A stretch of DNA of 64,000 bases. It comes from a virus (Duplodnaviria > Caudoviricetes). The stretch covers positions 7,021 through 71,020 of the IMG/VR virus record IMGVR_UViG_2974630626_000001; one strand, 5' to 3'. This document shows positions 24,188-58,498 of this stretch, piece by piece. The translations under genes and the position numbers were made by a program. Numbering within the stretch: the stretch's first letter is position 1; each line of letters opens with the position of its first letter. The notes under the pieces are model-generated. The model saw only the letters and a program-made list of their open reading frames with translations, had not been told where the DNA came from and ran no database searches.

Positions 24188-24225
24188 TTCTTACCCTTTC
24201 GTTGTGGCTGGTTGCTACAGAAAGA

Positions 24226-24255
24226 AATGTAGCACCCCGCTACAGACTTATGCAA
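24226..24255 (-). promoter_or_regulatory. sigA-like promoter with palindromic operator in spacer
   Basis: Minus strand TTGCAT-N18-TACATT. Operator TGTAGCACCCCGCTACA at 24228-24244; degenerate copy TGTGGCTGGTTGCTACA at 24203-24219. Confidence 0.8.
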
Positions 24256-24466
24256 CCTTTGCGAATCCACCGGGCTTGCCCGTGCGCTGGACATGCTCAA
24301 TGAACGGTTGGATTGTCTGCGGCTTCCACCCCGGGGAATGACTGATTTCAAAGTCAGGCACGGGCATGAGGCCGCGCATTTTCCAAGCTCGCACAGCCTT
24401 GGGTTCCACATGGAGGGTTTTGGCTATCAGGTTGTAGTCCACGAGGCGAACAGGTTTCTTGGGCAT
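24248..24466 (-). CDS. Small HTH DNA-binding protein (MerR/AlpA/excisionase-like)
   Basis: LVDYNLIAKTLHVEPKAVRAWKMRGLMPVPD...GW; SD GAAAGG; flanked by two operator copies. Confidence 0.8.
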   Translation of the reverse strand: MPKKPVRLVDYNLIAKTLHVEPKAVRAWKMRGLMPVPDFEISHSPGWKPQTIQPFIEHVQRTGKPGGFAKVA

Positions 24467-24496
24467 GGGGTGCCTTTCGGTAGTTGTGGTCATTCA

Positions 24497-24525
24497 ACTG
24501 TAGCGGGGTGCTACTAGAGCCGCAA
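24497..24525 (-). promoter_or_regulatory. sigA-like promoter of HTH gene overlapped by operator
   Basis: Minus strand TTGCGG-N17-TACAGT; operator TGTAGCGGGGTGCTACT at 24499-24515. Confidence 0.7.
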
Positions 24526-24533
24526 CGGCGCAC

Positions 24534-24567
24534 CGTCCCACAGCCGCCCCGCCCCGGCTGCCATGCT
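24534..24567 (+). promoter_or_regulatory. Late-type promoter, leaderless geometry
   Basis: CGTCCCACAG-N18-CATGCT-N6-ATG(24574). Confidence 0.7.
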
Positions 24568-24573
24568 TGCGCC

Positions 24574-24915
24574 ATGGCTACTGGTCCCCTCTCTATACCC
24601 TTCCGGCTGAACCCGGACGGCACCGCCGCCACGGTGGGCTATGGCACTGACCGCGAGGTTGACGAAGCCATTGTGGCTTTGGTGCTGACCCACATGGGCG
24701 AGCGGCAAATGAACCCGGCCTTTGGCGTGCCCGATCCTGCTTTTGCGGGGTTGGACACGGGCGATATTCAGGTGGGCTTGGACCAGTACGGACCAGCCGG
24801 AATAACCATTCAATCGGTCACCAGCGAGCCGGTAGACGGCTCTGACCAGGTTGTGCGCGCCGTCGTGGCGTGGCAACGCGATTCTGACGGAACAGGAACC
24901 CAAAACAATGGCTGA
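24574..24915 (+). CDS. Baseplate wedge protein (gp25/gpW-like)
   Basis: PFRL...LT..GER.M.P.FG motif. Confidence 0.85.
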   Translation: MATGPLSIPFRLNPDGTAATVGYGTDREVDEAIVALVLTHMGERQMNPAFGVPDPAFAGLDTGDIQVGLDQYGPAGITIQSVTSEPVDGSDQVVRAVVAWQRDSDGTGTQNNG

Positions 24916-26029
24916 CGTACCCGAATACGAGGCGTTGAACCTGCTCAACTACGGCACGGAACCGGACCTTGTGGCGGCGGCGACGGCCTACGCCATGGCC
25001 GCACTGCCGGAATGGCAGCCACGCACGGGCAACACTGAAATGGTCCTCATTGAGTCCCTGGCGGTGATGCTGGGGCCGGAAATTCTGGCTATCCAAATGC
25101 TGCCCGGGCAGATCGTGGAACAGTTGATGAAGCTCTACGGTGTGGCCCGGAACCCGGGCGCGCCTGTCACGGGCCGGGTCCAGTTCACGGTTACGAACAG
25201 TGCCCCCACGCAGACCATACCGGCTGGCACGAGGCTGCGGCTTCCGATCCCCGGCACGGGCGAAACCGTGGATTTCCTGACCAAGGACCAGCTGGAAATC
25301 ATCGTTTCCGAGGGCACCACCGGGCAAGTGGACGTGTACTCCGAATACTTGGGCGCGGTGGGCAACTCCACCCCGGGCGGCACGACCATGGAAGTTGTGG
25401 ACACCCTGCAATTCGTTGAGGGTGTCGTCACCGTTGGTGCCCTGTCTGGTGGCGCTGGCCCGGAAGCTGACCAAGAGTTCCAGGGGCGCGCGTCCGCGAC
25501 GCTGGCCCGGTTGACCTCCACGCTGGTGCTGCCGGAATCCTTCCAGTTCGCTGCCGCGTCCCGGCCCGAGGTGGGGCGCGCTAAGGTCTTTGACCTCTAC
25601 AACCCGGCCCAACCGCTGGTGAACCCCGCCGTGGGCTATGTGACCGTGGCCCTGGCCGACGCCAACGGCGCCGCGCTGCCCGGAACCGTGACAGCGGATA
25701 TTGCAAGCTGGCTGGCCGGTCAGGCGTTGAGCTCGCTCAAGGTCAGCGTCATTGACCCCACTTACACCACGGTGAATATCACCGTGAGCGTGAAAGCGTC
25801 CTTTGGGTTCACCGCGGCACAGGTCCAGGCGAACGTTGCGGCCACCCTTGCTGACTGGCTGAACGCCAAGACGTGGGACTGGAACCCCGTGGTGGGCCAA
25901 TACGCGATTGTGGCCAAGGTGGCTGCCACCGCTGGCGTGGCTGAGGTGACCAGCGCCCCGGCGAACATTGCACTTGCTGGCAAGGCGCCGTTGCCGATTC
26001 TTGGCACGGTCACCGTGAACGTGGTCTAA
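24908..26029 (+). CDS. Baseplate J-like protein
   Basis: ARNPGAPVTGRVQFT, IPAGTRL, GGAGPEADQEF, GYVTVALAD motifs. Confidence 0.9.
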   Translation: MADVPEYEALNLLNYGTEPDLVAAATAYAMAALPEWQPRTGNTEMVLIESLAVMLGPEILAIQMLPGQIVEQLMKLYGVARNPGAPVTGRVQFTVTNSAPTQTIPAGTRLRLPIPGTGETVDFLTKDQLEIIVSEGTTGQVDVYSEYLGAVGNSTPGGTTMEVVDTLQFVEGVVTVGALSGGAGPEADQEFQGRASATLARLTSTLVLPESFQFAAASRPEVGRAKVFDLYNPAQPLVNPAVGYVTVALADANGAALPGTVTADIASWLAGQALSSLKVSVIDPTYTTVNITVSVKASFGFTAAQVQANVAATLADWLNAKTWDWNPVVGQYAIVAKVAATAGVAEVTSAPANIALAGKAPLPILGTVTVNVV

Positions 26030-26039
26030 GGGGACTGGC

Positions 26040-27896
26040 ATGGCTATTTTGAGGAACCGGAACACCAACCCGGACATGGTGGGCAGCGCTGGGACCACCA
26101 CGGTGTTGACCAACTTCATTGGCAACTCGCGTGGTTTCGCGTCGCTGGCTTGGTGGAATGTTTCCGCTGGCCTTGGTGGTGCCGCCGTGAACTCGCTTGT
26201 GGCCTCCGGTGGCCCGGATACGCGGATCCCTGACGGTGGGCCGTTCATCCGTTACACGCAGACCACCGCGAACACGGCCAACAGTTGCGGCCCGTACTAC
26301 CGGGACACTGCAGGGCAGACTCCGGGGGTTGCTGGGGACACGAGGACGTGGCAAGCGTGGGTTCGCCCCTCCATCACCAGGAATATGCGCTTGTCTGGGA
26401 ACTTCAAGGCCGCTGACGCGTCGGACGTAACCACGGGCAGCGGTGCCACGGTTTCATGCACGGGCGGCGAATGGACCCAGCTGCCCCCCGTGACGATAAC
26501 CGCCACGGGTGATTACGTGAAGCTCCAAGCGTGGCCGGTAGCCACTGGCCCGGTAGACGTGGGCGAGACAATCGACGTGGTTGTCTGGGTTACTGCCGTA
26601 CCTTGGCCGTTCTTTGACGGCAACGTACCCAACGACGCTGAATTCACTTATTCATGGTCTGGAACGGCTGGCCTGTCACTAACGAACATGACAGCCAACA
26701 CCGTGACTGGCTCAAGCAACAGCGCCGGAACAGGCGGTGCGCTGCGAATCTGGCAATCCACGGACGCGCCCATGAGTTCGAGCCGTTCGCTCAAATCCGT
26801 GCAAACTGTGGCGAGCACGGGCGGTTCCGCGGGTGTCATTCACCAGTCCAGCACCCCGGGCAGCGCGGGGGTGATATCGGCAAGCATGTGGGTGAAATAC
26901 AACATCGACCGCTACGTGCGTCCGCTGCTGCGTGCCCGGAACGGCACAACTCAGGTGTCCACGGACATATCCAACAACACCGTCTTTGTGCCGGCCAACA
27001 CGTGGCAGGAACTTCGCATTGAGGGTGTTCAGGTCAACAACGATTACACCAACATTCAGGTGTGGCCGTGGATTCAGGCGCCAACCGGGCTGCTTGCACC
27101 CGGAGACACCATGCAGTTGGCCCGGGTGCTGATTGTGGACGGCCCCAAGCTGCCCCCGGATGGGTGGTGGGACGGGGACGAACCCGGCAACGGCAAGTAC
27201 ATTTACGCGTGGGACGGCGTGGCCAACCTATCGAGCTCCACGCGCATGGACCGGATAGACATAATCCACTGGTGGACCAGGATGTGGTTCAGCCGGTTGC
27301 CGGTTGCCTATCAGGAAATGGACGCGGTGACCGGGCCGGACAAGGGCGCGTTCCCGCTGCTGAGGTACATGGACGGCCCCGGGCAAGTGTCCGGACGTAT
27401 TCGCGACCTCTCCGACTCCATGCTCAATGGGACGTTCATGGACCCCAACACCACCCCGGACTATGCCCTGCGTTGGATTGCGCAGCTTATGGGCGTGAAC
27501 GCTTCGCAGCGTGCCATTGCGTCCACTGACCTCCGGGCGTACCTATTGGACCTCGTGGCGTCCGGGCGTCCGGCTGTGGGCACGACTCAGAGCATTGTGG
27601 ACGCGGCCAAGCGGTTCCTGATTGGTGACCGACAGGTGACGGTGATCCCTTCGCCCACGGCGGCCCACACCATTGTGGTGCTGGCCCGGGCGGACGAAGT
27701 GCCGGGGACGCTGGCAACGCTGGTAACTCAGATCAGGTCCACGGGTGTCATACCGGCTGGCCACAACCTTGTGGCGCAATACGCCATTGCTACATGGGAC
27801 CAGTACGAGGCCGCCGTGGGCACGACCTGGACGGCTGCCGAGCAGAACCAGCCGACGTGGCGAGCCGCTGAAAGCCTTGGTATTACGTTGGACTGA
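26040..27896 (+). CDS. Baseplate wedge (P2 gpI-like C-terminus) with two N-terminal carbohydrate-binding-like domains
   Basis: Duplicated beta-sandwich blocks ending in (F/W)DG...Y.W.G.A.LS; C-terminal RLP..Y...DP.TTP..ALRWIAQLMGV. Confidence 0.7.
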   Translation: MAILRNRNTNPDMVGSAGTTTVLTNFIGNSRGFASLAWWNVSAGLGGAAVNSLVASGGPDTRIPDGGPFIRYTQTTANTANSCGPYYRDTAGQTPGVAGDTRTWQAWVRPSITRNMRLSGNFKAADASDVTTGSGATVSCTGGEWTQLPPVTITATGDYVKLQAWPVATGPVDVGETIDVVVWVTAVPWPFFDGNVPNDAEFTYSWSGTAGLSLTNMTANTVTGSSNSAGTGGALRIWQSTDAPMSSSRSLKSVQTVASTGGSAGVIHQSSTPGSAGVISASMWVKYNIDRYVRPLLRARNGTTQVSTDISNNTVFVPANTWQELRIEGVQVNNDYTNIQVWPWIQAPTGLLAPGDTMQLARVLIVDGPKLPPDGWWDGDEPGNGKYIYAWDGVANLSSSTRMDRIDIIHWWTRMWFSRLPVAYQEMDAVTGPDKGAFPLLRYMDGPGQVSGRIRDLSDSMLNGTFMDPNTTPDYALRWIAQLMGVNASQRAIASTDLRAYLLDLVASGRPAVGTTQSIVDAAKRFLIGDRQVTVIPSPTAAHTIVVLARADEVPGTLATLVTQIRSTGVIPAGHNLVAQYAIATWDQYEAAVGTTWTAAEQNQPTWRAAESLGITLD

Positions 27897-27973
27897 CTTG
27901 GCAAAACGTATAGCCCCCCTCTATAGTCTTTTTCAGACCCGCGGCAGTATGCTGAGGGTAGGGGTGAGACAGC

Positions 27974-28014
27974 AAAAAGCCCCCGCGCTGGACACACCAG
28001 CGCAGGGGCTTTTT
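27974..28014. terminator. Intrinsic terminator ending the structural region
   Basis: AAAAAGCCCCCGCGCTGG...CCAGCGCAGGGGCTTTTT. Confidence 0.8.
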
Positions 28015-28071
28015 CAGTAATCGCCACAACTACTGGTGTCAGTTTATCAGTGGCACCACAAGATATGCCGT

Positions 28072-28100
28072 TTGACCGAATCGCCACATTCGACTACATA
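28072..28100 (+). promoter_or_regulatory. sigA-like promoter
   Basis: TTGACC-N17-TACATA; the spacer contains AATCGCCACA, repeated at 28019 and 30296. Confidence 0.55.
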
Positions 28101-28116
28101 GAAAGGCCACTTGGCC

Positions 28117-28353
28117 ATGTCAAAGCTTCGCAATTGCTTTGCCCGGTTCGCGTCCTGGTTCGCCGGCGCGGCACCTGTTCAGCCGGTCCCGGAACCCAAG
28201 ACCCGGTTGGAAGAACTCCACGACCAGAGGCTGCAGGGCGTCTTCGCCCGGGGCATGAACGCGTTGGAGTCGCGCCCCGCCAACATGACTGACCGGGACC
28301 GGGAAATCCTTGGTCATTCCATTGCCAACATGCTGGCCCGGAACGTCGCATGA
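28117..28353 (+). CDS. Hypothetical protein
   Basis: SD GAAAGG; 78 aa. Confidence 0.65.
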   Translation: MSKLRNCFARFASWFAGAAPVQPVPEPKTRLEELHDQRLQGVFARGMNALESRPANMTDRDREILGHSIANMLARNVA

Positions 28354-28577
28354 TCACCGCCCAACTGCTGGGTGGCCCGTGCGACGGGCGCACCATCCAA
28401 CTTGCCGATGACATGCAAGCGTTCCACGTCCCTTGCACCGTGATCACGGACAACCCGGACATGCAGGGTGAGTTCGTTGGCCCGGGCTTCCCATGCGTGG
28501 CCACATACGCCTTTTTCCAGACCCTTCCCAGCGGCACCAAAGTGTTCCGGTTGTCCGGGATTCACAGCAACGCATGA
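28350..28577 (+). CDS. Hypothetical protein
   Basis: ATGA-coupled; LLGGPCDG motif; 75 aa. Confidence 0.7.
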   Translation: MITAQLLGGPCDGRTIQLADDMQAFHVPCTVITDNPDMQGEFVGPGFPCVATYAFFQTLPSGTKVFRLSGIHSNA

Positions 28578-28741
28578 TTGCCCGGGAAGCCGAGGTGGTG
28601 CGCAAGAGTAACCACCAGCTTGGCAAGGTGCTGGGGTATGTCCCGGGCGGCTATGAGGTCATGTGGAACGGAACCAAGGCCATTAGCTATGAAGACGAAA
28701 CGACCATTGAACCCCGATTTGAGGAAGACAGCGAGGAACCC

Positions 28742-29983
28742 ATGAAAGTGATTGCCCTGCAAGCCGAGAACGTCAAGCGGCTGCGTGCCGTGTCCCTTGC
28801 CTTTGACGGCACCTTGCAAGTCATTGGCGGTGACAACGGCGAAGGCAAGTCGTCAGTGTTGGATGCCATTTGGCTGGCCATTGGTGGCCGTCAGGCGACC
28901 AACGAAACGCAGACCACCCGCCCCATTCACGACGGCGAGGACGAAGCAAAGGCCACGGTGGACCTTGGGGAAATCATCGTCACCCGGACGTGGAAGCGCG
29001 GCAAGCCCGGGGCGGTGAAGGTCACCACCCGCGAGGGCGCGGAACACAAGTCCCCGCAAGCGATTCTGGACGCCCTCACGGCCAAGGTGGGCATTGACCC
29101 GCTGGCGTTCACTCAGTTGTCCGCCAAGGAACAGATGAAACAGCTTTTGGCGCTAGTCGACCTCCCGTTCGACCCGGCCAAGCTGGACGCCGAGGCTGCG
29201 GAAATCTTCACCGAGCGCACGGCGGTGAACCGTCGCGTGAACGAGGTGGACGCCCGTTTGAAGGGCTTTCCGCTCCCGGCCCCTGGATTGCCCGAACAAG
29301 AGATTGACGTGGCCGAACTGGTGGACTCGCTGCGGCGCATTGACTCGATCAACGCCGCCGTGATCCGCGCCAACGAACGGGTAACCGAGGCGGTGGCATC
29401 GGTTCAGTATTTCGAGGAAAAGCTGGAGGCCGCCAAGTCCGAGCAAAAGGCCGCCGAGGTTGCCCGGGCGGACGCTTACAACCTTGCGCAAGCGTCCCCC
29501 AACGCGGACGAATTGCGCGCCAAGCTGGACACCGTGAGCGAGACAAACAAGGCCGTGCGTGTGGAGCTTGAGCGCCAACAAGGCGTGAAGGTGCTGGCGC
29601 AACTCAAGGCCAAGTCTGACGAACTCACGGGGAAGCTTACAAGCATTCAGGACACCAAAGCCGAGGGGCTGGCCAAGGCCGCTTGGCCCATCCAGGGGTT
29701 GGGGTTCGACGCTGACGGGCTGACCTACAACGACGTGCCGTTCAATCAGGCGTCCAGCGCGGAACAGATCAGGGTGAGCATGGCCATGGCCATGGCTTTG
29801 CAGCCCAAGCTCAAGACCCTGTTTATTCGCGACGGCTCGCTGTTGGACGGCAAGAACATGCGTTTGGTGGCCGACATGGCAGCCGCTCAGGGCTACCAGG
29901 TGATCATGGAACGCGTGGGCGACCATGACAAGGGCGCAATCATCATTTCTGACGGCGAAGTAAAGGCAGACACGGACAAATGA
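28742..29983 (+). CDS. SMC/SbcC-like AAA ATPase
   Basis: ENVKRL, Walker A GDNGEGKSS, long coiled coil, ASSAEQ signature, FIRDGSLLD. SD GAGGAA. The frame is also open from ATG 28574. Confidence 0.85.
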   Translation: MKVIALQAENVKRLRAVSLAFDGTLQVIGGDNGEGKSSVLDAIWLAIGGRQATNETQTTRPIHDGEDEAKATVDLGEIIVTRTWKRGKPGAVKVTTREGAEHKSPQAILDALTAKVGIDPLAFTQLSAKEQMKQLLALVDLPFDPAKLDAEAAEIFTERTAVNRRVNEVDARLKGFPLPAPGLPEQEIDVAELVDSLRRIDSINAAVIRANERVTEAVASVQYFEEKLEAAKSEQKAAEVARADAYNLAQASPNADELRAKLDTVSETNKAVRVELERQQGVKVLAQLKAKSDELTGKLTSIQDTKAEGLAKAAWPIQGLGFDADGLTYNDVPFNQASSAEQIRVSMAMAMALQPKLKTLFIRDGSLLDGKNMRLVADMAAAQGYQVIMERVGDHDKGAIIISDGEVKADTDK

Positions 29984-30234
29984 CACTCAAAGTTGACCCG
30001 GGCGAGGCCAAGCGGCTGCTGTCCGATGTGACACGGGGGACAGCACGCAGCGAACGGCTGCGGGGTATCGCTGAGAGGCGTTACAAGCGCGACCTTGCCC
30101 GGGCCAACGAACCCCGCCGCAAGGCCGTGCTGGCGGCCAAGGAAGCTGGCGTGAAGCGCGAGGATATCGCCCACGCGGCGGGGGTGTCTGTGGCCCGTCT
30201 TTACCAGATTATTGAGGGTTCCCCGGACACCTAA
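29980..30234 (+). CDS. HTH DNA-binding protein
   Basis: C-terminal REDIAHAAGVSVARLYQII. Confidence 0.8.
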   Translation: MTLKVDPGEAKRLLSDVTRGTARSERLRGIAERRYKRDLARANEPRRKAVLAAKEAGVKREDIAHAAGVSVARLYQIIEGSPDT

Positions 30235-30252
30235 AACGTCAAGGGGGGGACT

Positions 30253-30281
30253 TTGTAAATGTCAGCCCCTTGCACTACTGT
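30253..30281 (+). promoter_or_regulatory. sigA-like promoter of recombination operon
   Basis: TTGTAA-N17-TACTGT. Confidence 0.6.
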
Positions 30282-30327
30282 GAAACCGTTCCACCAATCG
30301 CCACAAACTACAAAGGAAGTGATCCAC

Positions 30328-30705
30328 CTGGACACGGATAAAACCCTTTATCTGAACCTCTTTGAGGTCTGCCACAACATCCCAAGCGTGACCCGCGAAA
30401 CAGGCGCCGAAATCGTGCTGGAAGCCCTCCGGGTGACCTACGAGGATTTGCCAGCGGACGCCCCCATTGATCAGACGGCCCGGGTTGTGGCCTTGTGTCT
30501 GCGGGGCGAGGTGGCAGCAAATGAGTTGTTCGCCGCGTTTGAACTGTGGATGCTGCGGCACCAAATCGCGGACCCGCAAGGTGACCTTGAATGGTTGCTT
30601 GACCTACCGAACACCGAGGCCAACCGGGAACGCGAGGTGGTCAACGCTGAGGGCAACCTCATGGCCGCCGTGAACGCCATTTTGGACAAGGCGGGTGTGA
30701 AGTGA
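30328..30705 (+). CDS. Hypothetical protein (start uncertain: CTG 30328, GTG 30319 or ATG 30259)
   Basis: Helical acidic ORF coupled to the exonuclease gene; SD-like GGAAGTGAT 4 nt before CTG. Confidence 0.65.
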   Translation: MDTDKTLYLNLFEVCHNIPSVTRETGAEIVLEALRVTYEDLPADAPIDQTARVVALCLRGEVAANELFAAFELWMLRHQIADPQGDLEWLLDLPNTEANREREVVNAEGNLMAAVNAILDKAGVK

Positions 30706-31655
30706 CGGCGGCGGCTGAGGTCACGCAGTACGTCGACCACTCGATCCCCGGACACAAGCCCGGTAGTGAGGAATGGGTGAAGTTCCTCACGGCGTCCAAA
30801 ATCGCGGCAATCATGGGGCACAGCACCTATGACAGCTATTTCAGCATGTGGCACCGCATGGCCGGGAATATCGACCCGGACCCCGCGAGCGAGGAAGCCC
30901 TGCGCGGCCACTACCTGGAACCCGCCATTGCCCACTGGTTCGCGGACCAAATGCCCGATTACGAAATGATGCCCACGGGCATGTGGGTGGCCAAGGACGC
31001 CCCGCGCTTCGCCGCCACCCCTGACCGTTTCATGGTCCCGAAGAATCCGGGCATGCTGCTGTCATTGGGTGAGGTCAAGAGCTCAAACAACGATTGGGAG
31101 TGGGGGACCGAGGACACCGAGGAAGTGCCCCTCGGCTACTACGACCAGACCCAATGGCAAATGCGCTGCATCCGAACCCACTACCCGGAAATTGAGGGCG
31201 TCCACGTCCCGGTGCTGACCACGGGGCTGAACTTCGCCAAGTATTACGTCCCCTGGGACCCCGATTATGTGGAAATCCTGGAAGCGAAGGCCACCGAGTT
31301 TATGGACGCTTTGGAGGCTGGCCGGACACCCAGCATTGACCCGCTGGACGGGCACCTGCAGACCTACTCCGCGATTCGGAAGCTCCACCCGGACATTGAA
31401 CCCGGATCCGTGGACCTCACGGACGATGAAGCCCGGGCGTTCTTCGAGACGCACGCAGCGGACAAGGAACTTGCCCTGCGGCTGCAAGCGGCCAAGAACG
31501 TGATTGCCGCCAAGATGGGCAACACCCAAACAGCCAAGTGGCGGGGCCGGAAGGTATTCACCCGCATGTCCAAACAGGGCGGCACGCCGTACCTGACCGC
31601 AGCCCGGGGACTTCCCACGGCTGACCTACTCCTAGAAATGGAACCCGCAGCATGA
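30702..31655 (+). CDS. YqaJ/RecE-like exonuclease
   Basis: LTASKIAAIMG, RGHYLEP, ATPD, EVKS, Y..Q.QWQM motifs. Confidence 0.9.
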   Translation: MTAAAEVTQYVDHSIPGHKPGSEEWVKFLTASKIAAIMGHSTYDSYFSMWHRMAGNIDPDPASEEALRGHYLEPAIAHWFADQMPDYEMMPTGMWVAKDAPRFAATPDRFMVPKNPGMLLSLGEVKSSNNDWEWGTEDTEEVPLGYYDQTQWQMRCIRTHYPEIEGVHVPVLTTGLNFAKYYVPWDPDYVEILEAKATEFMDALEAGRTPSIDPLDGHLQTYSAIRKLHPDIEPGSVDLTDDEARAFFETHAADKELALRLQAAKNVIAAKMGNTQTAKWRGRKVFTRMSKQGGTPYLTAARGLPTADLLLEMEPAA

Positions 31656-32599
31656 GCACCGCCGCTAACGAACGCGCCCTAGTAGTTCAGGAACAAGTCC
31701 GGGGGCTGCTGCTGCACCACCGCCGCCAACTGACCAGCACGCTGCCCTCCCACCTCAAGGACAAGGGCGACGCGTGGCTCTCCGGGGCACTCGCTGCGCT
31801 GCAACGGGATAACAACCTTGCCCAAGCCGCGCTGGCCAACCCGGACACCCTCATTTCGGCGCTGTCCGAGGCCGCGCAAAAGGGTTTGAACCCTGGAACG
31901 CCGGAATACTATTTGACCTCACGCCGGGACAAGAACCGTGGACAGATCGTTTTGGGCATCACCGGATACCAGGGTGAAATTGAGCTCATTTTCCGGGCCG
32001 GGGCTGTGGCCACCATCGTGGCTGAGGTGGTCCACGAAAACGACACTTACACCTACGTGCGAGGCGTGAACGACCGTCCCATCCATGAGATTCCAGGCGG
32101 CAACTTTGGCCGCGCCGCTAACCGTGGGGACATGATCGGCGTTTACGCCTACTGCATCATGAAGGACGGCAGCGTGTCCCGCATCATCGAACACGGCGCA
32201 GACCACATAGCGAAGGTCAAGGCCGAGGCGCAAGGCGCGGACGGCAACTATTCCCCATGGAAAAAGTGGGAGGACCAGATGTGGCTCAAGACCGCCGTGC
32301 ACAGTCTCAGCAAGTGGGTTCCCACGTCCGCCGAGTACGTGCGCGAGCAAGCCCGTGCCGTGGCCATTGGGAACGCTACGGCCGTTCCAGTCGCCGCCGT
32401 GGGCAACGCCGGGGGCGCACCTGTTGCCGACACGCCACGTCAGGCACCGGACAATATCAACGACGCGCCGGACCAGGGCGCACAATATGAAGACCTTGGC
32501 GAGAACCAGACCGTGGACCAGTCCAACGGCGAAGTGTTCGGCCAAGACCCGGTGGCCGAGTCTTGGGGACTCAGCGACCCGGAACCGCAACAAAACTAA
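31652..32599 (+). CDS. recT: RecT-like single-strand annealing protein
   Basis: AQKGLNP...YYL, LGITGYQGEIELIFRAG, PW..W.DQMWLKT..H.LSKWVP; coupled to the exonuclease gene. Confidence 0.9.
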   Translation: MSTAANERALVVQEQVRGLLLHHRRQLTSTLPSHLKDKGDAWLSGALAALQRDNNLAQAALANPDTLISALSEAAQKGLNPGTPEYYLTSRRDKNRGQIVLGITGYQGEIELIFRAGAVATIVAEVVHENDTYTYVRGVNDRPIHEIPGGNFGRAANRGDMIGVYAYCIMKDGSVSRIIEHGADHIAKVKAEAQGADGNYSPWKKWEDQMWLKTAVHSLSKWVPTSAEYVREQARAVAIGNATAVPVAAVGNAGGAPVADTPRQAPDNINDAPDQGAQYEDLGENQTVDQSNGEVFGQDPVAESWGLSDPEPQQN

Positions 32600-32631
32600 A
32601 CGCCACAACTCAAAGAACGGAACAGCTACAA

Positions 32632-36169: not shown

Positions 36170-36195
36170 AAAACAGGCACACGCCCCCATAGGCT
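36170..36195 (+). promoter_or_regulatory. Middle-type promoter box
   Basis: AAAACAGGCACA-N8-TAGGCT; the box lies inside the inverted repeat GGGGGCGTG/CACGCCCCC. Confidence 0.75.
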
Positions 36196-36232
36196 CGAAA
36201 TATCAAGTACCGCCACAACGAAAGCCGGACCA

Positions 36233-37774: not shown

Positions 37775-37777
37775 ACC

Positions 37778-46847: not shown

Positions 46848-46853
46848 GGGGAT

Positions 46854-49049: not shown

Positions 49050-49057
49050 GTTGCGCA

Positions 49058-49083: not shown

Positions 49084-49089
49084 GGGATC

Positions 49090-50679: not shown

Positions 50680-50681
50680 CC

Positions 50682-50831: not shown

Positions 50832-50851
50832 GCCACAACGAAAGGACCACC

Positions 50852-51469
50852 ATGGCATTGAGCGAGACATACACGGACGGGGCAGCCGCCCCCGAATGGG
50901 TCAAGGAAGGCGGCACCGTAGCCGTCTGCCAGCGCACCCACTACGGCGTATCGCATTCCGTGAACAAAGGCTATGTGGAGCGACTGACCAAAACCCAAGT
51001 GATCCTGAACGACGGGCGCCGGTTCAGTCTCAAGAACGGGTTACGCCAAGTAGGTGACTCGAAACGCGACCCTTACGGACCCGGGCCGTTGTTCCTGGCT
51101 GATTGGGACAGCACCGCCGTGAAGGAAGCTTTGCGGGAACAGTTCCTGCGGAACACCGCCGATCAGATCGGGGCGAAAGCCCGGGCGTTCGCCTCCGAAC
51201 CAGACGGCAAGAAAGCCGTTGAGCTCATAGACCTGCTTAGCCGGTGGGCAAAGCGGGACGGCATGGAGGTGCCCAACGAACTGGCCGCCGAACTCAAGGA
51301 AGCCCGGGCGAAGCTCAACCCGGACCCGGACATGGTGGACGCCATGGCCGCTGACCTGGCCGAGGCGTTCAACTTCCCAAGCAAGCGCTACGCACGCCAA
51401 GAAGTCCGCTTTGTGCTGGCCCTAGCGAGAGGGGAAGACCCAAATGGCAGTGACGTGCGAATCCTGTAA
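50852..51469 (+). CDS. Hypothetical protein (205 aa)
   Basis: SD GAAAGGA; VERLTKTQV motif. Confidence 0.8.
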   Translation: MALSETYTDGAAAPEWVKEGGTVAVCQRTHYGVSHSVNKGYVERLTKTQVILNDGRRFSLKNGLRQVGDSKRDPYGPGPLFLADWDSTAVKEALREQFLRNTADQIGAKARAFASEPDGKKAVELIDLLSRWAKRDGMEVPNELAAELKEARAKLNPDPDMVDAMAADLAEAFNFPSKRYARQEVRFVLALARGEDPNGSDVRIL

Positions 51470-51671
51470 GCCTGACCTCTCCGGTGCCCCGTGGTGCCGT
51501 CAGCACCGTTGTGATTGCAACATTATGTGTGGCCACCGGGGCTTTGAACGGCCCCACATATTCGCCCCCGGGGAATGGTGTGGCGGCAATGATGTGACAT
51601 GGCGGGAACGCCGCGCGTTCGGCAACTGCCGGGTGCACGAAACCAGCGAAGAAAGGCCAACCAATGCGTGA
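51444..51671 (+). CDS. Cys-rich small protein
   Basis: 75 aa with eight Cys and several His. Confidence 0.55.
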   Translation: MAVTCESCKPDLSGAPWCRQHRCDCNIMCGHRGFERPHIFAPGEWCGGNDVTWRERRAFGNCRVHETSEERPTNA

Positions 51672-52089
51672 CAGTCACACCATCCGGGTCCGGGTGTCCC
51701 TGACGTTCGAGGAATTGGACCAGAACGGCACCGTGGTGCGCCGGTCAAATGACCGTTTCGGGGTAAGCCACGACCTGACCACCACCAGCGAGGTCATGGC
51801 ACGCTTTCCCCACATGCCAGCCACCTACGCGGCCAACAAGGTGGGTCACAGTATCGCGGACGCCCTGAATCAGGTATTGCCGCCGTTCCTGGACGGCAAG
51901 ACCGGGCAAGCGTTCTGCCCCTCCACGATCCACGAGGGCAAAGAGGTGGCCGCGCCTGTTGGCGGTCTGTTCATCAACCATTGGAACCCCGAACGAAACG
52001 CCCGGGTTTGGTACTGCGAGGAATGCGCCGCCATGGGCGAGCTCACAGGCTTGTTCGAGCGAGACAAGGGCAACGAAAATGGCGGCTGA
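51664..52089 (+). CDS. Hypothetical protein
   Basis: SD GAAAGG; 141 aa; C..CEEC. Confidence 0.7.
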   Translation: MRDSHTIRVRVSLTFEELDQNGTVVRRSNDRFGVSHDLTTTSEVMARFPHMPATYAANKVGHSIADALNQVLPPFLDGKTGQAFCPSTIHEGKEVAAPVGGLFINHWNPERNARVWYCEECAAMGELTGLFERDKGNENGG

Positions 52090-52375
52090 GGTCCACACGC
52101 CCGTGCCCGTGCAAGCGCACAAGATGAAGCCCGATATTGAGATTGACGAAGACGGGGTTACCTGGCTGTTCGTGGAAACGCAGTATGGCAAGTACAAAGC
52201 GAACCACGCCGTCATGACCGCCCCGCCGTTCTCCACTGTTGCGGACCCAATCACCCGCAACCTTGGCTTTGACCCCGGGACTATCGACCCGTCAGGGGTT
52301 CGGTGGTCCAGCACGATCTACAGCGACATGGCTTTCAAGCCGCAGCCCGGGCCAATCCGGTTTGACGTGCTGTGA
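52079..52375 (+). CDS. Hypothetical protein
   Basis: 98 aa; overlaps the upstream stop region. Confidence 0.65.
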   Translation: MAAEVHTPVPVQAHKMKPDIEIDEDGVTWLFVETQYGKYKANHAVMTAPPFSTVADPITRNLGFDPGTIDPSGVRWSSTIYSDMAFKPQPGPIRFDVL

Positions 52376-52474
52376 CCGAGAAACCCGGCCCCCGGCCCGT
52401 AACGAACCCCTACCAAGACCCTGTTGGCCGCGCCCTGGTCAACGGCATCATCAAACGAAAGAGAGAGCGAGACA

Positions 52475-52759
52475 ATGCAGAACCCAACGTACCCGGACCC
52501 CGCGAACGCGCCCCTGAACACGGACCCCGTGACACTCCCGGAAGTGGGGGACTTGGTGCTGTACAACACCAAGATGGGCGGCGGCGTGAAAGTGCCAGCC
52601 GTCGTGACGGCGCTCATTGACGACCGGGTGTGTCTCAACATCATGTACCCGCCCCACATCGTGGAAGACCCCATCGACTTCGAGCAGACCGAGGTCAAGG
52701 GAACCATCACTTACCGGCCCGGTTCCGGGATCCCAGGACGCTGGGAACCGCGCCCGTAA
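52475..52759 (+). CDS. Hypothetical SH3-like protein
   Basis: LPEVGDLVLY...PAVVT...V.LNI; 94 aa. Confidence 0.65.
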   Translation: MQNPTYPDPANAPLNTDPVTLPEVGDLVLYNTKMGGGVKVPAVVTALIDDRVCLNIMYPPHIVEDPIDFEQTEVKGTITYRPGSGIPGRWEPRP

Positions 52760-52784
52760 AAACAGGCACGCCGCTGCTTAGTGT
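52759..52784 (+). promoter_or_regulatory. Middle-type promoter, leaderless geometry
   Basis: AAAACAGGCACG-N8-TAGTGT-N6-ATG(52791). Confidence 0.85.
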
Positions 52785-52790
52785 GAGGGT

Positions 52791-53174
52791 ATGACGAACA
52801 CTTACCCCGAACTGTTGCAGGAAATCGCCACGCTCGTGGTCCTGGAACAGCACACATGGCAGACGGAAGACGACCTGCAGAACTCCATAGCTGAATGCCT
52901 CAAGGCCGCCGGCCTAGACGTTACCCGCGAGGTGACCCTAGACGGTGGCCTTGGGCGTATCGACCTCATGATCGACGGCAAGGGCATTGGCATTGAGGTG
53001 AAGGTAAAGGGTTCGTGGCAGCAACTCACCCGTCAGGTCATGCGCTACTCACGCGCCCCCGAAATCAAAGCCCTGTTGGTGGCCACCACCAAGCCAGCGC
53101 ACGCCATGCACACCCCCGTGGCCGCCAACGGCGTGCCCATCCTTACCGTGGTCCTTGGCGGTGGCCTCTCGTGA
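52791..53174 (+). CDS. PD-(D/E)XK nuclease-like protein
   Basis: E..LQ...REV...GRIDLMI...IGIEVK...Q..RY. Confidence 0.75.
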   Translation: MTNTYPELLQEIATLVVLEQHTWQTEDDLQNSIAECLKAAGLDVTREVTLDGGLGRIDLMIDGKGIGIEVKVKGSWQQLTRQVMRYSRAPEIKALLVATTKPAHAMHTPVAANGVPILTVVLGGGLS

Positions 53175-54916
53175 CCGTCCAGCTTGAGCTACCCGCCGCC
53201 CCGCCACGCACCTATGGGACGTACTCCTACGAACTCGACGGCGGCCGCGGTAAATGGGTGCTGCGCATGGAACCCGCCGTGACCGTCCGGGCGAAGCGCA
53301 TCTTTGCCCGGGTCCGCTGGACCCACGCCGGGGTGATTGAGGTAGCCGACTCGCTGGACGTGACCCGTGACCTGGAATGGCTCATGGAACGGTGGCCCCT
53401 GGAACCAGCGAACCCGGAAGCCGCCGCGCACCTCTACCGGCAAGCCAACGCGCACCGCCGCCGTGAGGCCACCATCCACAAAGTGGTGACGGGCCAACGC
53501 CGTCTTGAGCTCCCGCGCGAGCCAGCGAAGAAACCCCGCGATTACCAGCTTGTGGCCGTGGACCTGCTCCGCTCCACGGGCCGGTTGCTGCTCACTGACT
53601 CCCGGGGCTTGGGTAAGACGTTCACCGGGCTGCTGAACGGCACCCATGAGGACGCCCTGCCCATGCTCGTGGTCCCTCCCGCGCACCTCCCGGGCCGGTG
53701 GGCGCATGAGGCAGCCGAGGCGTTCCCGTTCCTCAACTTCCAGATAGCGAAAAAGGGCACCCCACCAGAGAACTGGACCCCGGACGACATGCCCGACGTC
53801 ATGATCGTGCCCTATTCCAAGCTGGCCGGGTGGGCCAACCACTTGGCCGGGAACTTCAAGACCATCGTGTTTGACGAAGTGCAAGAACTCCGAACTGGCC
53901 GCTACACCCGCAAGGGCATGGCCGCCGCCGTCCTCTGCGAGGGTGCCAACTACCGGCTGGGACTGACCGCCACCCCGATTTACAACTACGGCGGCGAAAT
54001 CTGGAACATTCTGGACATTCTGGCGCCCGGGGAACTGGGAACCAGCGAGGAATTCAGCCGCGAATGGGGGTCTGCGTCCTACAACGGCAAGGTCAGGATC
54101 AAGGATCCCGCCGCCCTGGGTAACTACCTCCGCGAGGAAGGGCTAATGCTTGGCCGCAACAGGCGCGACGTTGGCCGCGAGCTACCGCCCCATGTGACCG
54201 TGAACGTGACCGTGGAAAGCGACCCGGAAGCACTCGAAAAGGTCAAGGGCGACGCCCAAGCCATGGCCAAGCTGATCCTGGCCGCCGACACGTCCAGTTG
54301 GGACCGCATGAAAGCCGCCGGCGACCTGGACTGGAAACTACGGGAAGCCACGGGCATTGGCAAAGCGCCCTACGTTGCCGAGTTCGTGCGCTTGCTGCTT
54401 GAGTCCGAAGACAAGATTGTGCTGTTTGGGTGGCACCGTGCCGTGTATGACATTTGGCAAGACCTCTTGGCCGAGTTCAACCCGGCCATGTATACCGGCA
54501 GCGAGTCAGCCACCCAAAAGGACGCCGCCGCCAAGGCATTCACCACTGACCCCGAATGCCGGGTACTGCTCATGTCGCTGCGTTCCGGGTCCGGCGTGGA
54601 CGGGCTGCAAGAGGTGTCCAAGGTGTGCGTGTTCGGGGAACTGGACTGGTCCCCACAAGTGCACTTGCAAGGCATCGGGCGTCTTGACCGTGACCCCGCA
54701 GACCCCACTGTCGACCTCACCCAAGTTGACCCCACCGTGGCCTATTACCTGACCACCGAGGACGGCAGCGACCCCGTGCTGGTGGAAACCCTTGGGATCA
54801 AACGTAATCAGTCCGAACCGATGCTGAACCCTGACGGGAAGCTCACGCCAACCGCCGCGCCGGACGCTGGCCGCGCTCGTGCCCTTGCAATGCAAATACT
54901 GGGAGAAACCAAATGA
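53171..54916 (+). CDS. SNF2-family helicase
   Basis: PRDYQ, DSRGLGKT, DEVQ, LTATP, SGSGVDGLQ, WSP..H.QGIGRLDR. Confidence 0.9.
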   Translation: MTVQLELPAAPPRTYGTYSYELDGGRGKWVLRMEPAVTVRAKRIFARVRWTHAGVIEVADSLDVTRDLEWLMERWPLEPANPEAAAHLYRQANAHRRREATIHKVVTGQRRLELPREPAKKPRDYQLVAVDLLRSTGRLLLTDSRGLGKTFTGLLNGTHEDALPMLVVPPAHLPGRWAHEAAEAFPFLNFQIAKKGTPPENWTPDDMPDVMIVPYSKLAGWANHLAGNFKTIVFDEVQELRTGRYTRKGMAAAVLCEGANYRLGLTATPIYNYGGEIWNILDILAPGELGTSEEFSREWGSASYNGKVRIKDPAALGNYLREEGLMLGRNRRDVGRELPPHVTVNVTVESDPEALEKVKGDAQAMAKLILAADTSSWDRMKAAGDLDWKLREATGIGKAPYVAEFVRLLLESEDKIVLFGWHRAVYDIWQDLLAEFNPAMYTGSESATQKDAAAKAFTTDPECRVLLMSLRSGSGVDGLQEVSKVCVFGELDWSPQVHLQGIGRLDRDPADPTVDLTQVDPTVAYYLTTEDGSDPVLVETLGIKRNQSEPMLNPDGKLTPTAAPDAGRARALAMQILGETK

Positions 54917-55125
54917 TCAAGCTCTTTCGCCGCCGCCGCTACGTCGTCCAGGCGTTCCACCCCTCCGACTATGGCCCCTTTGGGCAGGTCCGGTTCCATG
55001 AGCTCTACCAGGTGCAAGACCACATGTCCATGGTTCGCCGCAGCTACCCCCACACTGAGTTCCTGATTTACGACAGGGTAAACCGCTACACCGTGGGCGA
55101 CTACCCCGCCAAGAATGACCGCTGA
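54913..55125 (+). CDS. Hypothetical protein
   Basis: ATGA-coupled, 70 aa. Confidence 0.6.
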   Translation: MIKLFRRRRYVVQAFHPSDYGPFGQVRFHELYQVQDHMSMVRRSYPHTEFLIYDRVNRYTVGDYPAKNDR

Positions 55126-55474
55126 CACCTGGCCCCGGGACGCTGCCGGCAACATACGCATGGTGCTGTATGTTGCCGGTCCCATGTCCGGGCTACCAGA
55201 GTACAACCGCCCCAAATTCAACGAGGTAACCGAGGAATTACGACGGTGTGGTTACTACGTGTTAAATCCGGCACGGCAGCCGTTAGGTTTGGAATATAAC
55301 GACTACATGAGGCGTGGACTGTACGACGTTTCCCGGGCCGATGGGCTGGCAATGCTGCCCGGTTGGGAAGACTCGAACGGTGCACGCATCGAACACCGTT
55401 TAGCCCTCAAAATGGGGCTGGAATGCAGACCCCATGACGAATGGGAAAACCTCTACGAAAGGCCACAACTATGA
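55115..55474 (+). CDS. DUF4406 / nucleoside 2-deoxyribosyltransferase-like protein
   Basis: YVAGPMSG...N...F, VLNPA, MLPGWEDSNGARIE. Confidence 0.85.
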   Translation: MTADTWPRDAAGNIRMVLYVAGPMSGLPEYNRPKFNEVTEELRRCGYYVLNPARQPLGLEYNDYMRRGLYDVSRADGLAMLPGWEDSNGARIEHRLALKMGLECRPHDEWENLYERPQL

Positions 55475-56049
55475 GCAAGCCACTGGTTCAGTACGCCGAA
55501 TTCACCAACGGCAACAGGGCGCTGGCAATCGACGCGAAAGCCCCCAACGGCGTCCGCATCAAGATCAAATCCACCAAGTCCGGCAGCGCCCTTGGCGTGT
55601 TCCAGGTGCCCCACGCTGACCTCCCAGCGGTCATGTTTGAGCTCACGGGCGGCCACCCCACGGACAAGGAAGTGGACGACGCCCGGGAAATCGTGGACGG
55701 GTTCATTGACGAAACCAACACCCCGCAGAACGTCGCCGCCCTCACCCGTCGCCTGTTGCTGGCCCTCCACATCAACAATCAGGCCGTTGCGGCGGCAACC
55801 GCTGCCGGGGCGCCCATGGACCATGACGCCACTGGCTGCATGGGCTGCGCAATCACCGAGGAAGCCCCGGAAGTGCTGCAAGACCCGGACTATGACCCCA
55901 CCGCCACGGAACTGGATGGGCTGATTGACCCCAACGAGGTGCCGGACACTGACCCCAACATTGTGGCCGCGCTGGCACGGGAGAACGCACACTTGCGCCA
56001 AAAGCTGGCCGCCATTGAAGCCCTCACCAACCCGGAAGTGACGCTGTAA
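55471..56049 (+). CDS. Hypothetical protein
   Basis: SD GAAAGG; ATGA-coupled; 192 aa. Confidence 0.7.
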   Translation: MSKPLVQYAEFTNGNRALAIDAKAPNGVRIKIKSTKSGSALGVFQVPHADLPAVMFELTGGHPTDKEVDDAREIVDGFIDETNTPQNVAALTRRLLLALHINNQAVAAATAAGAPMDHDATGCMGCAITEEAPEVLQDPDYDPTATELDGLIDPNEVPDTDPNIVAALARENAHLRQKLAAIEALTNPEVTL

Positions 56050-56297
56050 TGCCAGTTGCAGGACGCCCCCAGCCCCTTGCCAAGCCCCGTGGGAACTGCA
56101 TCAACCCCGAATGCGCGCACCCCATCAAGTCAGGCGGCAACCTGACAGCCGAAACCGAGGGCATGCGCCGCGCCAACCGTGAGGGCGTGTGTTTTGTCTG
56201 CAAGAAAGCCGGATTTGGGGAATTCCAGTGGACCCCGGAACTGATGGACGAAACCATCCGGCACGCCATGGGGGAACTGTTCCATGATGTTGCATAA
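56049..56297 (+). CDS. Zn-binding small protein
   Basis: C...C...C..C; TAATG coupling. Confidence 0.65.
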   Translation: MPVAGRPQPLAKPRGNCINPECAHPIKSGGNLTAETEGMRRANREGVCFVCKKAGFGEFQWTPELMDETIRHAMGELFHDVA

Positions 56298-56694
56298 CCC
56301 CGCCCTCACCATCATGGTGACCATCCCCATGACCAAGGCGCTCAACATGAATAAGGGGATGCATTGGTCAAAAGAGAGTCCCATTATCAAAGAGCTACGC
56401 GAGCAAGGCGGCTGGCTCATGCGCGAAAAGCACAAGGGCCGGAATCCATACTTTGACCGCTGCCACGTCAACGCTTGGGTGTACTTCCCGGACGAATCCC
56501 GACGCCGGGACACCATGAATTGGCTACCCACAGCCAAAGCACTGCAAGACGGCTTTGTTGACGGGAAGCTTGCCCCGGACGATAACGAGCGGTTCGTAAT
56601 TGGCCCACACTTGTGGCCCACCTATGAGCTATCCGGCATCAAGGGCATGTTGAAGCTGAGGTTTGAAATCACCCACCTTGAGCCCATCCAATGA
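56284..56694 (+). CDS. rusA: RusA-like Holliday junction resolvase
   Basis: LNMN...HW, RRRDTMN..PTAKALQDG.V....PDD. Confidence 0.75.
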   Translation: MMLHNPALTIMVTIPMTKALNMNKGMHWSKESPIIKELREQGGWLMREKHKGRNPYFDRCHVNAWVYFPDESRRRDTMNWLPTAKALQDGFVDGKLAPDDNERFVIGPHLWPTYELSGIKGMLKLRFEITHLEPIQ

Positions 56695-56888
56695 GTGACC
56701 ACATAGCCGCTATCCGCGCTGACCTGGACCGCGAGCGTTTGCGCTTGCTGGAACAGGTCAGCGCGGAATGCCACCAGACCGAACACCCCCAGAACAGGGC
56801 AGAACGCGCCGCCGGCAACCACCGCGCGCGGATCCTTGTTCGCGAAAACGCAGCGTTCTACGCCCAAAGAAAGGCCAAAACCCCATGA
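56691..56888 (+). CDS. Hypothetical protein
   Basis: ATGA-coupled at both ends. Confidence 0.6.
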   Translation: MSDHIAAIRADLDRERLRLLEQVSAECHQTEHPQNRAERAAGNHRARILVRENAAFYAQRKAKTP

Positions 56889-57268
56889 GCATGCACTACA
56901 GCCGCCACCAGCGCCGCCACGACCGCAACAAAGGGCTGATGATTGGCACTTTCCTGCTCGTGGCCTTGGTGATTGTGGGCGTCGCCGCCGTCGTCCAGGG
57001 CGCGAGCAAGCAAACCCAGACATGCACCGTGGGCAGCAAGTACATGACCACCGACGTGCACGACGGCAAGAGTGTGCGCGTCTACCAGGTGGAAACCAAG
57101 GACTGTGGGGTGCTGCGGGTGGAGGACAACGCCCTGCAGGGTGTCTTCAACTCCGCTGACCTGTTCGCGGCCCTCAACGAGGGGCAGCGCTACCGCTTCA
57201 CCACAGTGGGGTGGCGGGTGCCGTTCCTCTCCGCATTCCCCACCATCGTGAAAGTGGAAAGTGCCTAA
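56885..57268 (+). CDS. Membrane-anchored beta-barrel (OB-fold-like) protein
   Basis: Single TM then CTV..K...Y.VET.DCGV..VED...GQRY.F...GWR.PF.S.FP.I. Confidence 0.75.
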   Translation: MSMHYSRHQRRHDRNKGLMIGTFLLVALVIVGVAAVVQGASKQTQTCTVGSKYMTTDVHDGKSVRVYQVETKDCGVLRVEDNALQGVFNSADLFAALNEGQRYRFTTVGWRVPFLSAFPTIVKVESA

Positions 57269-57722
57269 GCCCGGGCCGGTGGAACGATTCTGGGCGAAGG
57301 TAGACCAGCGCGAGGACCACGAGTGCTGGCCATGGCGTGCCGGTATCGCCAAGGAAACCGGGTACGGCATCTTTCACCCCGCCACGGACGTGACCAAGCT
57401 GGCCCACCGCTTCGCCTATGAGCTCGCGAACGGCCCCATACCGGCTGGCCTTGTCCTGGACCACACTTGCCACAACGAGGCCGTGTGCATCGGCAAGTGT
57501 GTGCACCGCGCCTGTGTGAACCCAGCCCACACGGTCCCCCGGACCAGGCAAGACAACACCAACTTGGCGCCGTTCGCCAACATCAAGAAAACCCATTGCC
57601 CACGAGGGCATGAGTACACCCCAGAGAACACTTACCGGGCACCGTCCCGGCCCAAGTCCCGGCGCTGCAAACGGTGCTGGAAGTATCACGGGCGGACAGC
57701 CCAACAGAAAGAGGCAGCATAG
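57261..57722 (+). CDS. HNH (His-Me finger) endonuclease
   Basis: RFWAKV..CWPW, GYG, AHR.AYEL, LDHTC...CVNPAH...[10 protein letters not shown]. Confidence 0.9.
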
Positions 57723-58264
57723 TGGCCGGCGAGACAACCATTACCGTTATCGGCAACCTGACCAATGACCCGGAATTGCGTTTTACCCCGTCCGGGTCCG
57801 CCGTCGCCAACTTCACGATTGCCAGCACTCCGCGGACGTTCGATAAGCAGTCCAATGAGTGGAAGGACGGGGAAACCCTCTTTCTGCGTGCGAGCATTTG
57901 GCGGGACGCTGCCGAGAACGTGGCCGAGTCCCTGACCAAGGGAATGCGCGTGATCGTGTCCGGGCGCCTCAAGTCCCGGAGCTACGAAACCAAAGAGGGC
58001 GAAAAGCGAACCGTCATAGAGCTTGAGGTGGACGAAATTGGCCCCTCTCTGAGGTACGCCCAAGCCAAGGTGAACAGGACCCAGCGCAACGGCGGCGGGT
58101 TCGGCGGCAACAACGCGTCACAAGGCGGGAACCAGGGCGGCGGCGGATACAATCAGGGGGGCGGTTTCGGTGGCGGTGCAAATTCCGCGCCGGCCGATGA
58201 TCCGTGGGCCACCCAGGCTAGCAATGGTTGGGCGAATGGCCCGGACAGTGAGCCGCCCTTTTAG
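57722..58264 (+). CDS. ssb: Single-stranded DNA-binding protein
   Basis: [30 protein letters not shown]; Gly-rich linker; acidic EPPF tail. Confidence 0.95.
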
Positions 58265-58411
58265 CTTCCAGTTGGTCCGGTTAGGTGCGTTTGGGTGCGA
58301 GCGGGAATAGTACACCGTGAGTTCTCCAAGATGATGTAGACGTTGCCAGCGATCCGGTTAGCCAACAGGTGTGGTGGAGGACGTAGGGCGTTACGTTGGA
58401 AGCCAAACGGG

Positions 58412-58446
58412 AAAGCCCCGGTGCACGCTCGCGCCGGGGCTTTTTT
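58412..58446 (+). terminator. Intrinsic terminator
   Basis: AAAGCCCCGGTGC/GCGCCGGGGCTTTTTT. Confidence 0.85.
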
Positions 58447-58468
58447 GTGCCCTCTTTTGGAAATGTGG

Positions 58469-58498
58469 TTGCACTTTCGTGTAGCGAGGTGCTACATT
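58469..58498 (+). promoter_or_regulatory. sigA-like promoter with palindromic operator
   Basis: TTGCAC-N18-TACATT; operator TGTAGCGAGGTGCTACA at 58480-58496; near twin of 24226-24255. Confidence 0.8.

Follow-up and report, generated by a model that had tools for sequence, protein, structure and literature searches.

Functionally, the closest described counterpart of the system considered here is Cro at the early promoters of the phages lambda and P22. Cro is a protein of about 60–70 aa which binds 17-bp near-palindromes lying over early promoters at separate loci (OR and OL) and which, in lytic growth, turns down its own transcription unit together with another one. With regard to the protein fold, stand-alone MerR-type domains are closest. 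The stretch investigated here, in the following called the window, comprises 64,000 nt of viral DNA (bases 7021–71020 of the 71,020-bp virus record IMGVR_UViG_2974630626_000001). Three of its promoters, P_O1, P_O2 and P_O3, contain the 17-bp palindrome TGTAGC-N5-GCTACA (sites O1, O2 and O3), and a gene for a 72-aa helix-turn-helix (HTH) protein lies between the first two. We propose, with a probability of about one half, that this protein acts as a Cro-like, self-limiting repressor of three presumably early units.

In common with Cro operators, the sites are near-palindromes placed over core elements of three promoters, among them the regulator's own, and always in the same register. A turning down of the own unit and of another one is also what we propose here. 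In contrast to lambda and P22, this phage lacks a CI partner, tripartite operators and lysogeny, and the fold of the 72-aa protein is of the MerR/Xis type and not that of lambda Cro; the links to Cro proteins at the sequence level are weak. MerR-family regulators such as BmrR, CueR, SoxR and NmlR share the DNA-binding fold, and in both cases the dyad is found within the promoter spacer. However, the 72-aa protein lacks their dimerisation coiled-coil and sensor domain, and the spacers here measure 17–18 bp instead of 19–20 bp, with the dyad shifted onto the -10 element. Because of this position, occlusion would be expected rather than a remodelling of the spacer. In size and fold the protein equals the excisionases RdfS and GIsul2 Xis, BldC and the DNA-binding domain of RacA. 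Unlike those of Xis and BldC, the sites here are promoter-embedded palindromes, in a phage without integrase or attachment site. An excisionase or recombination directionality factor was rejected as a candidate, as no integrase is among the 105 genes annotated in the related phage DrYang.

An earlier note on this DNA had listed four copies of the palindrome, had read sigA-like hexamers whose spacer and -10 element are overlapped by three of them, had regarded P_O1 and P_O3 as near-identical and had let the stop codon of the HTH gene run into a -35 element. All four sites were found at the positions it gave (Table 1), the hexamers and the overlap can be read directly from the sequence at all three promoters, and the likeness of P_O1 and P_O3 holds from the palindrome through the -10 element and the CTTTCT next to it. 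Likewise, the stop codon (24248–24250) shares one base with the -35 element of P_O1, which is supplied by the last two codons of the HTH gene and this stop codon. With up to one mismatch allowed, the palindrome occurs four times; 100 dinucleotide shuffles gave 0.05 on average, and none of them reached four. The core GTAGY-N5-GCTAC (5+5) is present at three sites against 0.03 expected, and the 7 kb of genome that lie outside the window contain no further copy of the palindrome. The occurrence of the motif is non-random, and its position within three sigA-like promoters is fixed. In each of them, palindrome bases 14–17 are at the same time bases 1–4 of the -10 element; the dyad thus takes in the downstream two thirds of the spacer and reaches four bases into the -10 element, with its centre at about -17. 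Its arms are centred 11 bp apart, which is one helical turn. In P_O1 and P_O3 a TG one base upstream of the -10 hexamer makes an extended -10 element, and T11 of the motif is invariant there because it belongs to this TG.

The nearest relatives of the phage are the Arthrobacter myophages DrYang, Lymara, PrincessTrina, Colucci and ArV1, which belong to the genus Klausavirus (SEA-PHAGES cluster AR). Whole-genome average nucleotide identity to each of these five is 75–77%, and 75–87% among the relatives. With only 75–77% identity to them, the phage represents a species separate from its Klausavirus relatives. It is a lytic Arthrobacter myophage. The DrYang annotation contains no integrase, immunity repressor, sigma factor or RNA polymerase, in line with the earlier remark that no integrase was in view, and cluster AR has been described as being without lysogeny functions (PMC5513430). 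Nearly all genes point rightward; a leftward cassette, flanked by the holin gene and the baseplate wedge gene, is the exception (PMC5513430). All comparative counts given here cover six genomes, those of this phage and of the five relatives, with three sites each, i.e. 18 sites. A search for additional lineages in IMG/VR returned only the four phages already known. A metagenome scan for the same purpose yielded a single match, which was discarded as false since it lies out of frame within an amidohydrolase gene.

The three sites are located at syntenic places in all five relatives. The arms GTAG..CTAC are invariant in 18 out of 18 sites, and variation is confined to the 5-nt centre of the palindrome, the 5 nt between the -35 element and the palindrome, and the flanks. 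In O2 even the core GTAGC-N5-GCTAC is invariant across the six genomes. All 18 promoters have spacers of 17–18 bp, and a moderately strict sigA-like pattern found exactly these three promoters in each genome; the one other recurrent match is antisense inside the endolysin gene. The left arm of the palindrome is positioned at about -24 to -21, a region in which sigma makes no base-specific contacts. Therefore, its conservation is not explained by the promoter alone. A symmetrically binding protein would account for it. Recent gene conversion between O1 and O3 appears unlikely because their central bases differ within genomes.

Conservation is not restricted to the palindrome. P_O1 and P_O3 are parts of a module of about 80 bp which is kept in all six genomes and consists of the -35 element, the palindrome, the -10 element, CTTTCT, a leader ending in GCCACA(A/G)C, GAAAGG and the ATG. 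The first open reading frames (ORFs) behind this module have a different N-terminus in every lineage and almost no homologues; the genes next to P_O1 and P_O3 were tested for being paralogues of each other, and this was rejected. The fourth copy of the palindrome, O1', which had been noted as a degenerate copy, is a true match with one mismatch, but the comparison points to a conserved leader instead of an operator. It falls within the element YGYAGYAACC(N)GCCACA(A/G)C plus GAAAGG, and its right half (GCCACA) alone is kept in the P_O3 leaders of the six genomes and in the P_O1 leader of DrYang. Judged from these alignments, O1' is more likely part of the leader ...AACC(N)GCCACAAC-GAAAGG than an operator. 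The GCCACAAC element followed by GAAAGG is likewise found ahead of two start codons, at 36212 and 50832, where the promoter upstream is of a different class. A function of O1' as an auxiliary operator at P_O1 is possible; the distance between the centres of O1' and O1 is 25 bp, which is out of helical phase.

The HTH gene noticed earlier between the first two operators is real and conserved: in all six genomes it lies between O2 and O1, and its own promoter carries one of the sites. The start giving 72 aa is the right one, as the longer alternative of 81 aa is out of frame in the relatives and the DrYang homolog, gp38, is annotated at equal length. The protein matches the PHROGs family phrog_597 ('DNA binding protein') at 8e-19. 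An exhaustive search yielded 76 relatives, and among 44 aligned homologues 24 match Pfam MerR_1 and 19 match HTH_17 (E up to 0.01). Compared with the PDB, the family profile found the AlpA-family protein/excisionase 8c3t (2.6e-4) and Xfaso Cro (3bd1, 1.2e-3), furthermore RppC, RacA and BldC; the value for P22 Cro was 0.57. The AF2 model (pLDDT, the predicted local distance difference test score, of 88.8) consists of a strand, helices at residues 11–18 and 22–30, a wing formed by the strands 39–41 and 44–47, and a helix at 49–62. This is the order of elements in the MerR-superfamily fold, that is strand, helix 1, recognition helix 2, beta-hairpin wing and helix 3. The top matches in Foldseek and VIA are only MerR-family DNA-binding domains, RdfS, the DNA-binding domain of pSK1 Par, RacA and BldC, a homogeneous list with VIA Z-scores of 5–6.8 over 53–67 residues, which is nearly the whole chain. 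The gene product is thus predicted to be a winged helix of the MerR/Xis type and of DNA-binding character. The model ends with the 14-residue helix 3 and a disordered tail, without coiled-coil or effector domain.

Many remote homologues have 2–9 tandem copies of the domain, and this suggests that the domain may work in pairs. Tandem-domain homologues such as P0007, P0009, P0011, P0012 and P0014 are single polypeptides of up to 1435 aa. A distant homologue from phage Aoka (34% identical, 114 aa) is found in another context and has no informative palindromes. Within the Klausavirus set, a change in the sites is accompanied by a change in the protein. The positions concerned are arm position 6 and residue 22, the latter at the beginning of the recognition helix. 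In the clade of Lymara, PrincessTrina, Colucci and ArV1, O1 and O3 alike have T at this arm position, and the residue is V; this phage and DrYang have C at the arm position and P at the residue. Of the co-variation of operator and HTH protein which had been suggested as a check there is thus a hint, on a single branch.

In the proposed circuit, the winged-helix protein would be made from P_O2 and bind the dyad, most likely as a dimer with one recognition helix per arm; with one helical turn between the arms, two recognition helices would fit one face of the DNA. The bound dimer would cover the TGn element together with the -10 element and block RNA polymerase. With a dimer in this place, repression is the expected outcome. 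While accumulating, the protein would turn down its own promoter P_O2, P_O1 with four orphan genes, and P_O3 with one orphan gene 34 kb away. The cis-element is well supported and the circuit appears plausible; from the sequence we infer the binding by the 72-aa protein, the repressive sign and the early timing. P_O1, P_O2 and P_O3 are presumably early and used by the host polymerase.

Several observations weigh against such a circuit. Stand-alone MerR-type domains, for instance Xis and BldC, usually bind direct repeats in a head-to-tail manner and not palindromes. RacA is an exception, with a GC-rich inverted repeat and one domain per arm. The dyad symmetry of O1 and O3 is imperfect in four of the genomes (TGTAGT..GCTACA). 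The protein alone stays under the Pfam threshold (MerR_1, E 0.16, 12.6 bits versus a cut-off of 21.6), and the structural matches reach Z-scores of no more than 6.8, which is middling. The co-variation is confounded by phylogeny and, as a single branch, lies beyond a statistical test. The sole ground for calling the promoters early is their likeness to host promoters, that is the sigA-like hexamers and the extended -10 element. Finally, in the literature searched we found no paper naming Klausavirus and none mentioning the TGTAGC-N5-GCTACA motif.

A circuit of this type is ordinary for phages and, if it is true, general understanding of phage gene regulation is unchanged by it. For cluster AR, neither the motif nor such a circuit was described in the literature searched. 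If it works as proposed, it would be the first defined regulatory circuit for these phages, and Arthrobacter, for which few genetic tools exist, would gain a compact promoter-operator-repressor set. The five orphan genes would be probable early genes and candidates for host take-over or anti-defence functions, and palindrome recognition by a stand-alone MerR-type domain would have one more example.

The main alternative is that the palindromes are true operators read by another binder, be it a regulator of the host or another protein of the phage, and that the HTH gene is merely among the regulated ones. We judge this to be a minor but serious possibility. The tie between protein and DNA consists of position and one confounded co-variation, and the relatives annotate more small HTH proteins elsewhere in the genome. 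However, two of the three sites flank the HTH gene in all six lineages, and the remaining cassette proteins show no DNA-binding signature. Concerning a host protein, a scan for the promoter-plus-palindrome pattern in 185,579 prokaryote species (one genome each) gave 46 scattered matches, about the chance number, and none in Arthrobacter or Micrococcaceae; this argues against a binder from the host family as far as the complete pattern is concerned, the bare 12-base palindrome having been outside that scan. Rather unlikely is a role of the HTH protein as activator or dual switch, by a MerR-like remodelling of the over-long 18-bp spacers or, as in phi29 p4, by repression of P_O2 combined with activation or unmasking of late baseplate transcription. 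The MerR-type fold and sites within 17–18-bp spacers would suit this, as would the CGTCCCACA box, which with its upstream element abuts the -35 element of P_O2. On the other hand, the chain ends after helix 3, the dyad centre near -17 lies over the -10/TGn region and not in the middle of a 19–20-bp spacer, and the promoters already possess a usable -35, extended -10 and -10 element. A canonical MerR-type activator was rejected for the lack of both a coiled-coil/effector region and a dyad centred in such a spacer. Furthermore, a divergent late box is missing at O1 and O3. A phi29-p4-like variant in which the 72-aa domain would serve as temporal switch of the phage, reading the inverted repeat, silencing the three early promoters and at O2 additionally releasing or activating the late-class baseplate promoter that lies back-to-back, is in our view doubtful.

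Two further explanations would assign the palindromes to the RNA level or to the elongating polymerase. As hairpins with a U-rich run they might act as weak terminators or attenuators in read-through transcripts, and a terminator scan indeed lists O1 and O3, each hairpin being followed by TTTCTTTCT; also, pairing in the transcribed orientation would survive the sole arm change (C to T) as a G-U pair. Yet these hairpins reach only -6.3 to -8.4 kcal/mol (z -0.2 to -1.6), compared to -31 to -33 kcal/mol (z -5 to -8) for the real terminators, O2 has no U-run on either strand, and O3 is situated 30 nt past a strong terminator already. The conserved -35 element at a fixed distance of 5 nt would have no role, compensatory double changes are absent and a comparison of the palindromes with Rfam gave no family match. 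An intrinsic terminator at the palindromes was rejected, and an RNA function altogether is very improbable. Least probable of all is the loading of a processive antiterminator of the Q/AlpA type at a promoter element, with read-through of the terminator at 59672 and of the bidirectional terminator at 22587. In its favour, the palindrome lies between the -35 and -10 elements like the Q- and AlpA-binding elements (QBE and ABE; PMC9371919), terminators follow both units and the best PDB match of the family profile is named an AlpA-family protein. However, AlpA of P. aeruginosa is a protein of eight helices whose N-terminal ring enters the exit channel for RNA, and a single molecule recognises an asymmetric element of 6 bp (PMC9371919), whereas here a single winged helix of 72 aa meets a symmetric 17-mer. 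Read-through beyond 22587 would moreover run antisense into the lysis genes. This candidate was rejected.

Returning to the Cro-like repressor, the set of genes under its presumed control is small. The leftward unit starts at P_O2 and consists of the HTH gene, P_O1 inside the unit, four ORFs and the terminator at 22587–22622. P_O1 is an internal promoter and appears stronger than P_O2; it would drive the leftward cassette from the 200-aa gene onwards. Altogether, the presumed regulon comprises the HTH gene, this four-gene cassette and one orphan gene with its own terminator. The earlier view of an early regulon at two loci 34 kb apart is borne out in part, with respect to the three operator promoters, syntenic in six lineages, but the set is small and at least one further sigA-like promoter (27898–27927) is without operator. 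No usable indication of what the regulated genes do came from Pfam, NCBIfam, PHROGs, the ESM Atlas or a comparison with PDB sequences. The 368-aa protein behind P_O3 has just five homologues, and their common part is the C-terminal half. Its gene is a mosaic: Colucci gp105 and a few metagenomic proteins have only the C-terminal half in common with it, and the N-terminus differs in each relative. The terminator between the holin gene and the cassette is common to the rightward lysis genes and the leftward cassette.

Table 1. Positions of the palindromic sites, promoters, genes and further elements (window coordinates unless stated otherwise).
Feature	Position	Strand	Description
O1	24228–24244	no strand	Exact 17-bp palindrome TGTAGC-N5-GCTACA, within P_O1; syntenic in 5 relatives
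O2	24499–24515	no strand	Palindrome with one outer mismatch, within the HTH gene's own promoter
O3	58480–58496	no strand	Exact 17-bp palindrome, within P_O3
O1'	24203–24219	minus	Copy with 1 mismatch, in the P_O1 leader
P_O1	24226–24255	minus	-35 TTGCAT 24250–24255; 18-nt spacer; extended -10 TGc; -10 TACATT 24226–24231
P_O2	24497–24525	minus	-35 TTGCGG 24520–24525; 17-nt spacer; -10 TACAGT 24497–24502; ribosome binding site GAAAGG; ATG at 24466
P_O3	58469–58498	plus	-35 TTGCAC 58469–58474; 18-nt spacer with TGc; -10 TACATT 58493–58498
HTH gene, candidate regulator	24248–24466	minus	72 aa, predicted MerR/Xis-type winged helix
Leftward cassette behind P_O1	22631–24187	minus	Four ORFs, no assigned function; gene content varies among relatives
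Cassette ORF, 200 aa	23585–24187	minus	Leftward cassette
Cassette ORF, 94 aa	23298–23582	minus	Leftward cassette
Cassette ORF, 151 aa	22855–23310	minus	Leftward cassette
Cassette ORF, 69 aa	22631–22840	minus	Leftward cassette
Bidirectional terminator	22587–22622	both	Perfect; 16-bp arms, 4-nt loop; between holin gene and end of leftward cassette
Strong intrinsic terminator	58407–58448	plus	Ends upstream rightward operon; -32.9 kcal/mol, z -5.0; 20 nt before -35 of P_O3
Orphan gene, 368 aa	58539–59645	plus	Sole gene between P_O3 and the next terminator
Terminator-like hairpin with T-run	59672–59691	plus	Closes the P_O3 unit
CGTCCCACA box	24534–24542	plus	Putative late-class element for baseplate genes; back-to-back with -35 of P_O2; conserved in relatives
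CGTCCC(A/C)CA box copies	1389, 5334, 7647, 17187, 24534; in genome coordinates 2797, 6647		
AAAACAGGCAC box copies	36172, 39784, 42594, 44799, 46824, 49060, 50800, 52761, 61182, 61995 and others	plus	

Two other classes of boxes are found in the genome. The box CGTCCC(A/C)CA precedes blocks of structural genes and has a GACAC-like element upstream of it. The second box, AAAACAGGCAC(G), is present in about 13 plus-strand copies, most of them with an ATG about 21 nt downstream, and looks like a phage-specific promoter class which may give rise to leaderless or near-leaderless mRNAs. The copies at 36172 and 50800 are instead associated with CATAGGCTCG and the GCCACAACGAAAGG leader. Set against these two box classes, the three palindrome-bearing promoters form a distinct, host-like class. 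The leader motif GCCACA(A/G)C plus GAAAGG is present at 24208 (minus strand), 58517, 36212, 50832, 28023 and 28090, each time 12–16 nt upstream of the ATG of a gene that opens a leadered transcription unit.

The sigA-like promoter at 27898–27927 is without palindrome; a further one at 28072 was not counted, as its -35 element is not conserved in the relatives. The promoter at 27898–27927 (TTGGCA-18-TATAGT) belongs to a candidate small RNA unit (27898–28014), in which about 45 nt separate it from a strong terminator at 27974–28014 (-30.7 kcal/mol, z -7.9). Compared with Rfam, this candidate gave no match. The unit has no palindromic operator and is conserved in six out of six Klausavirus genomes.

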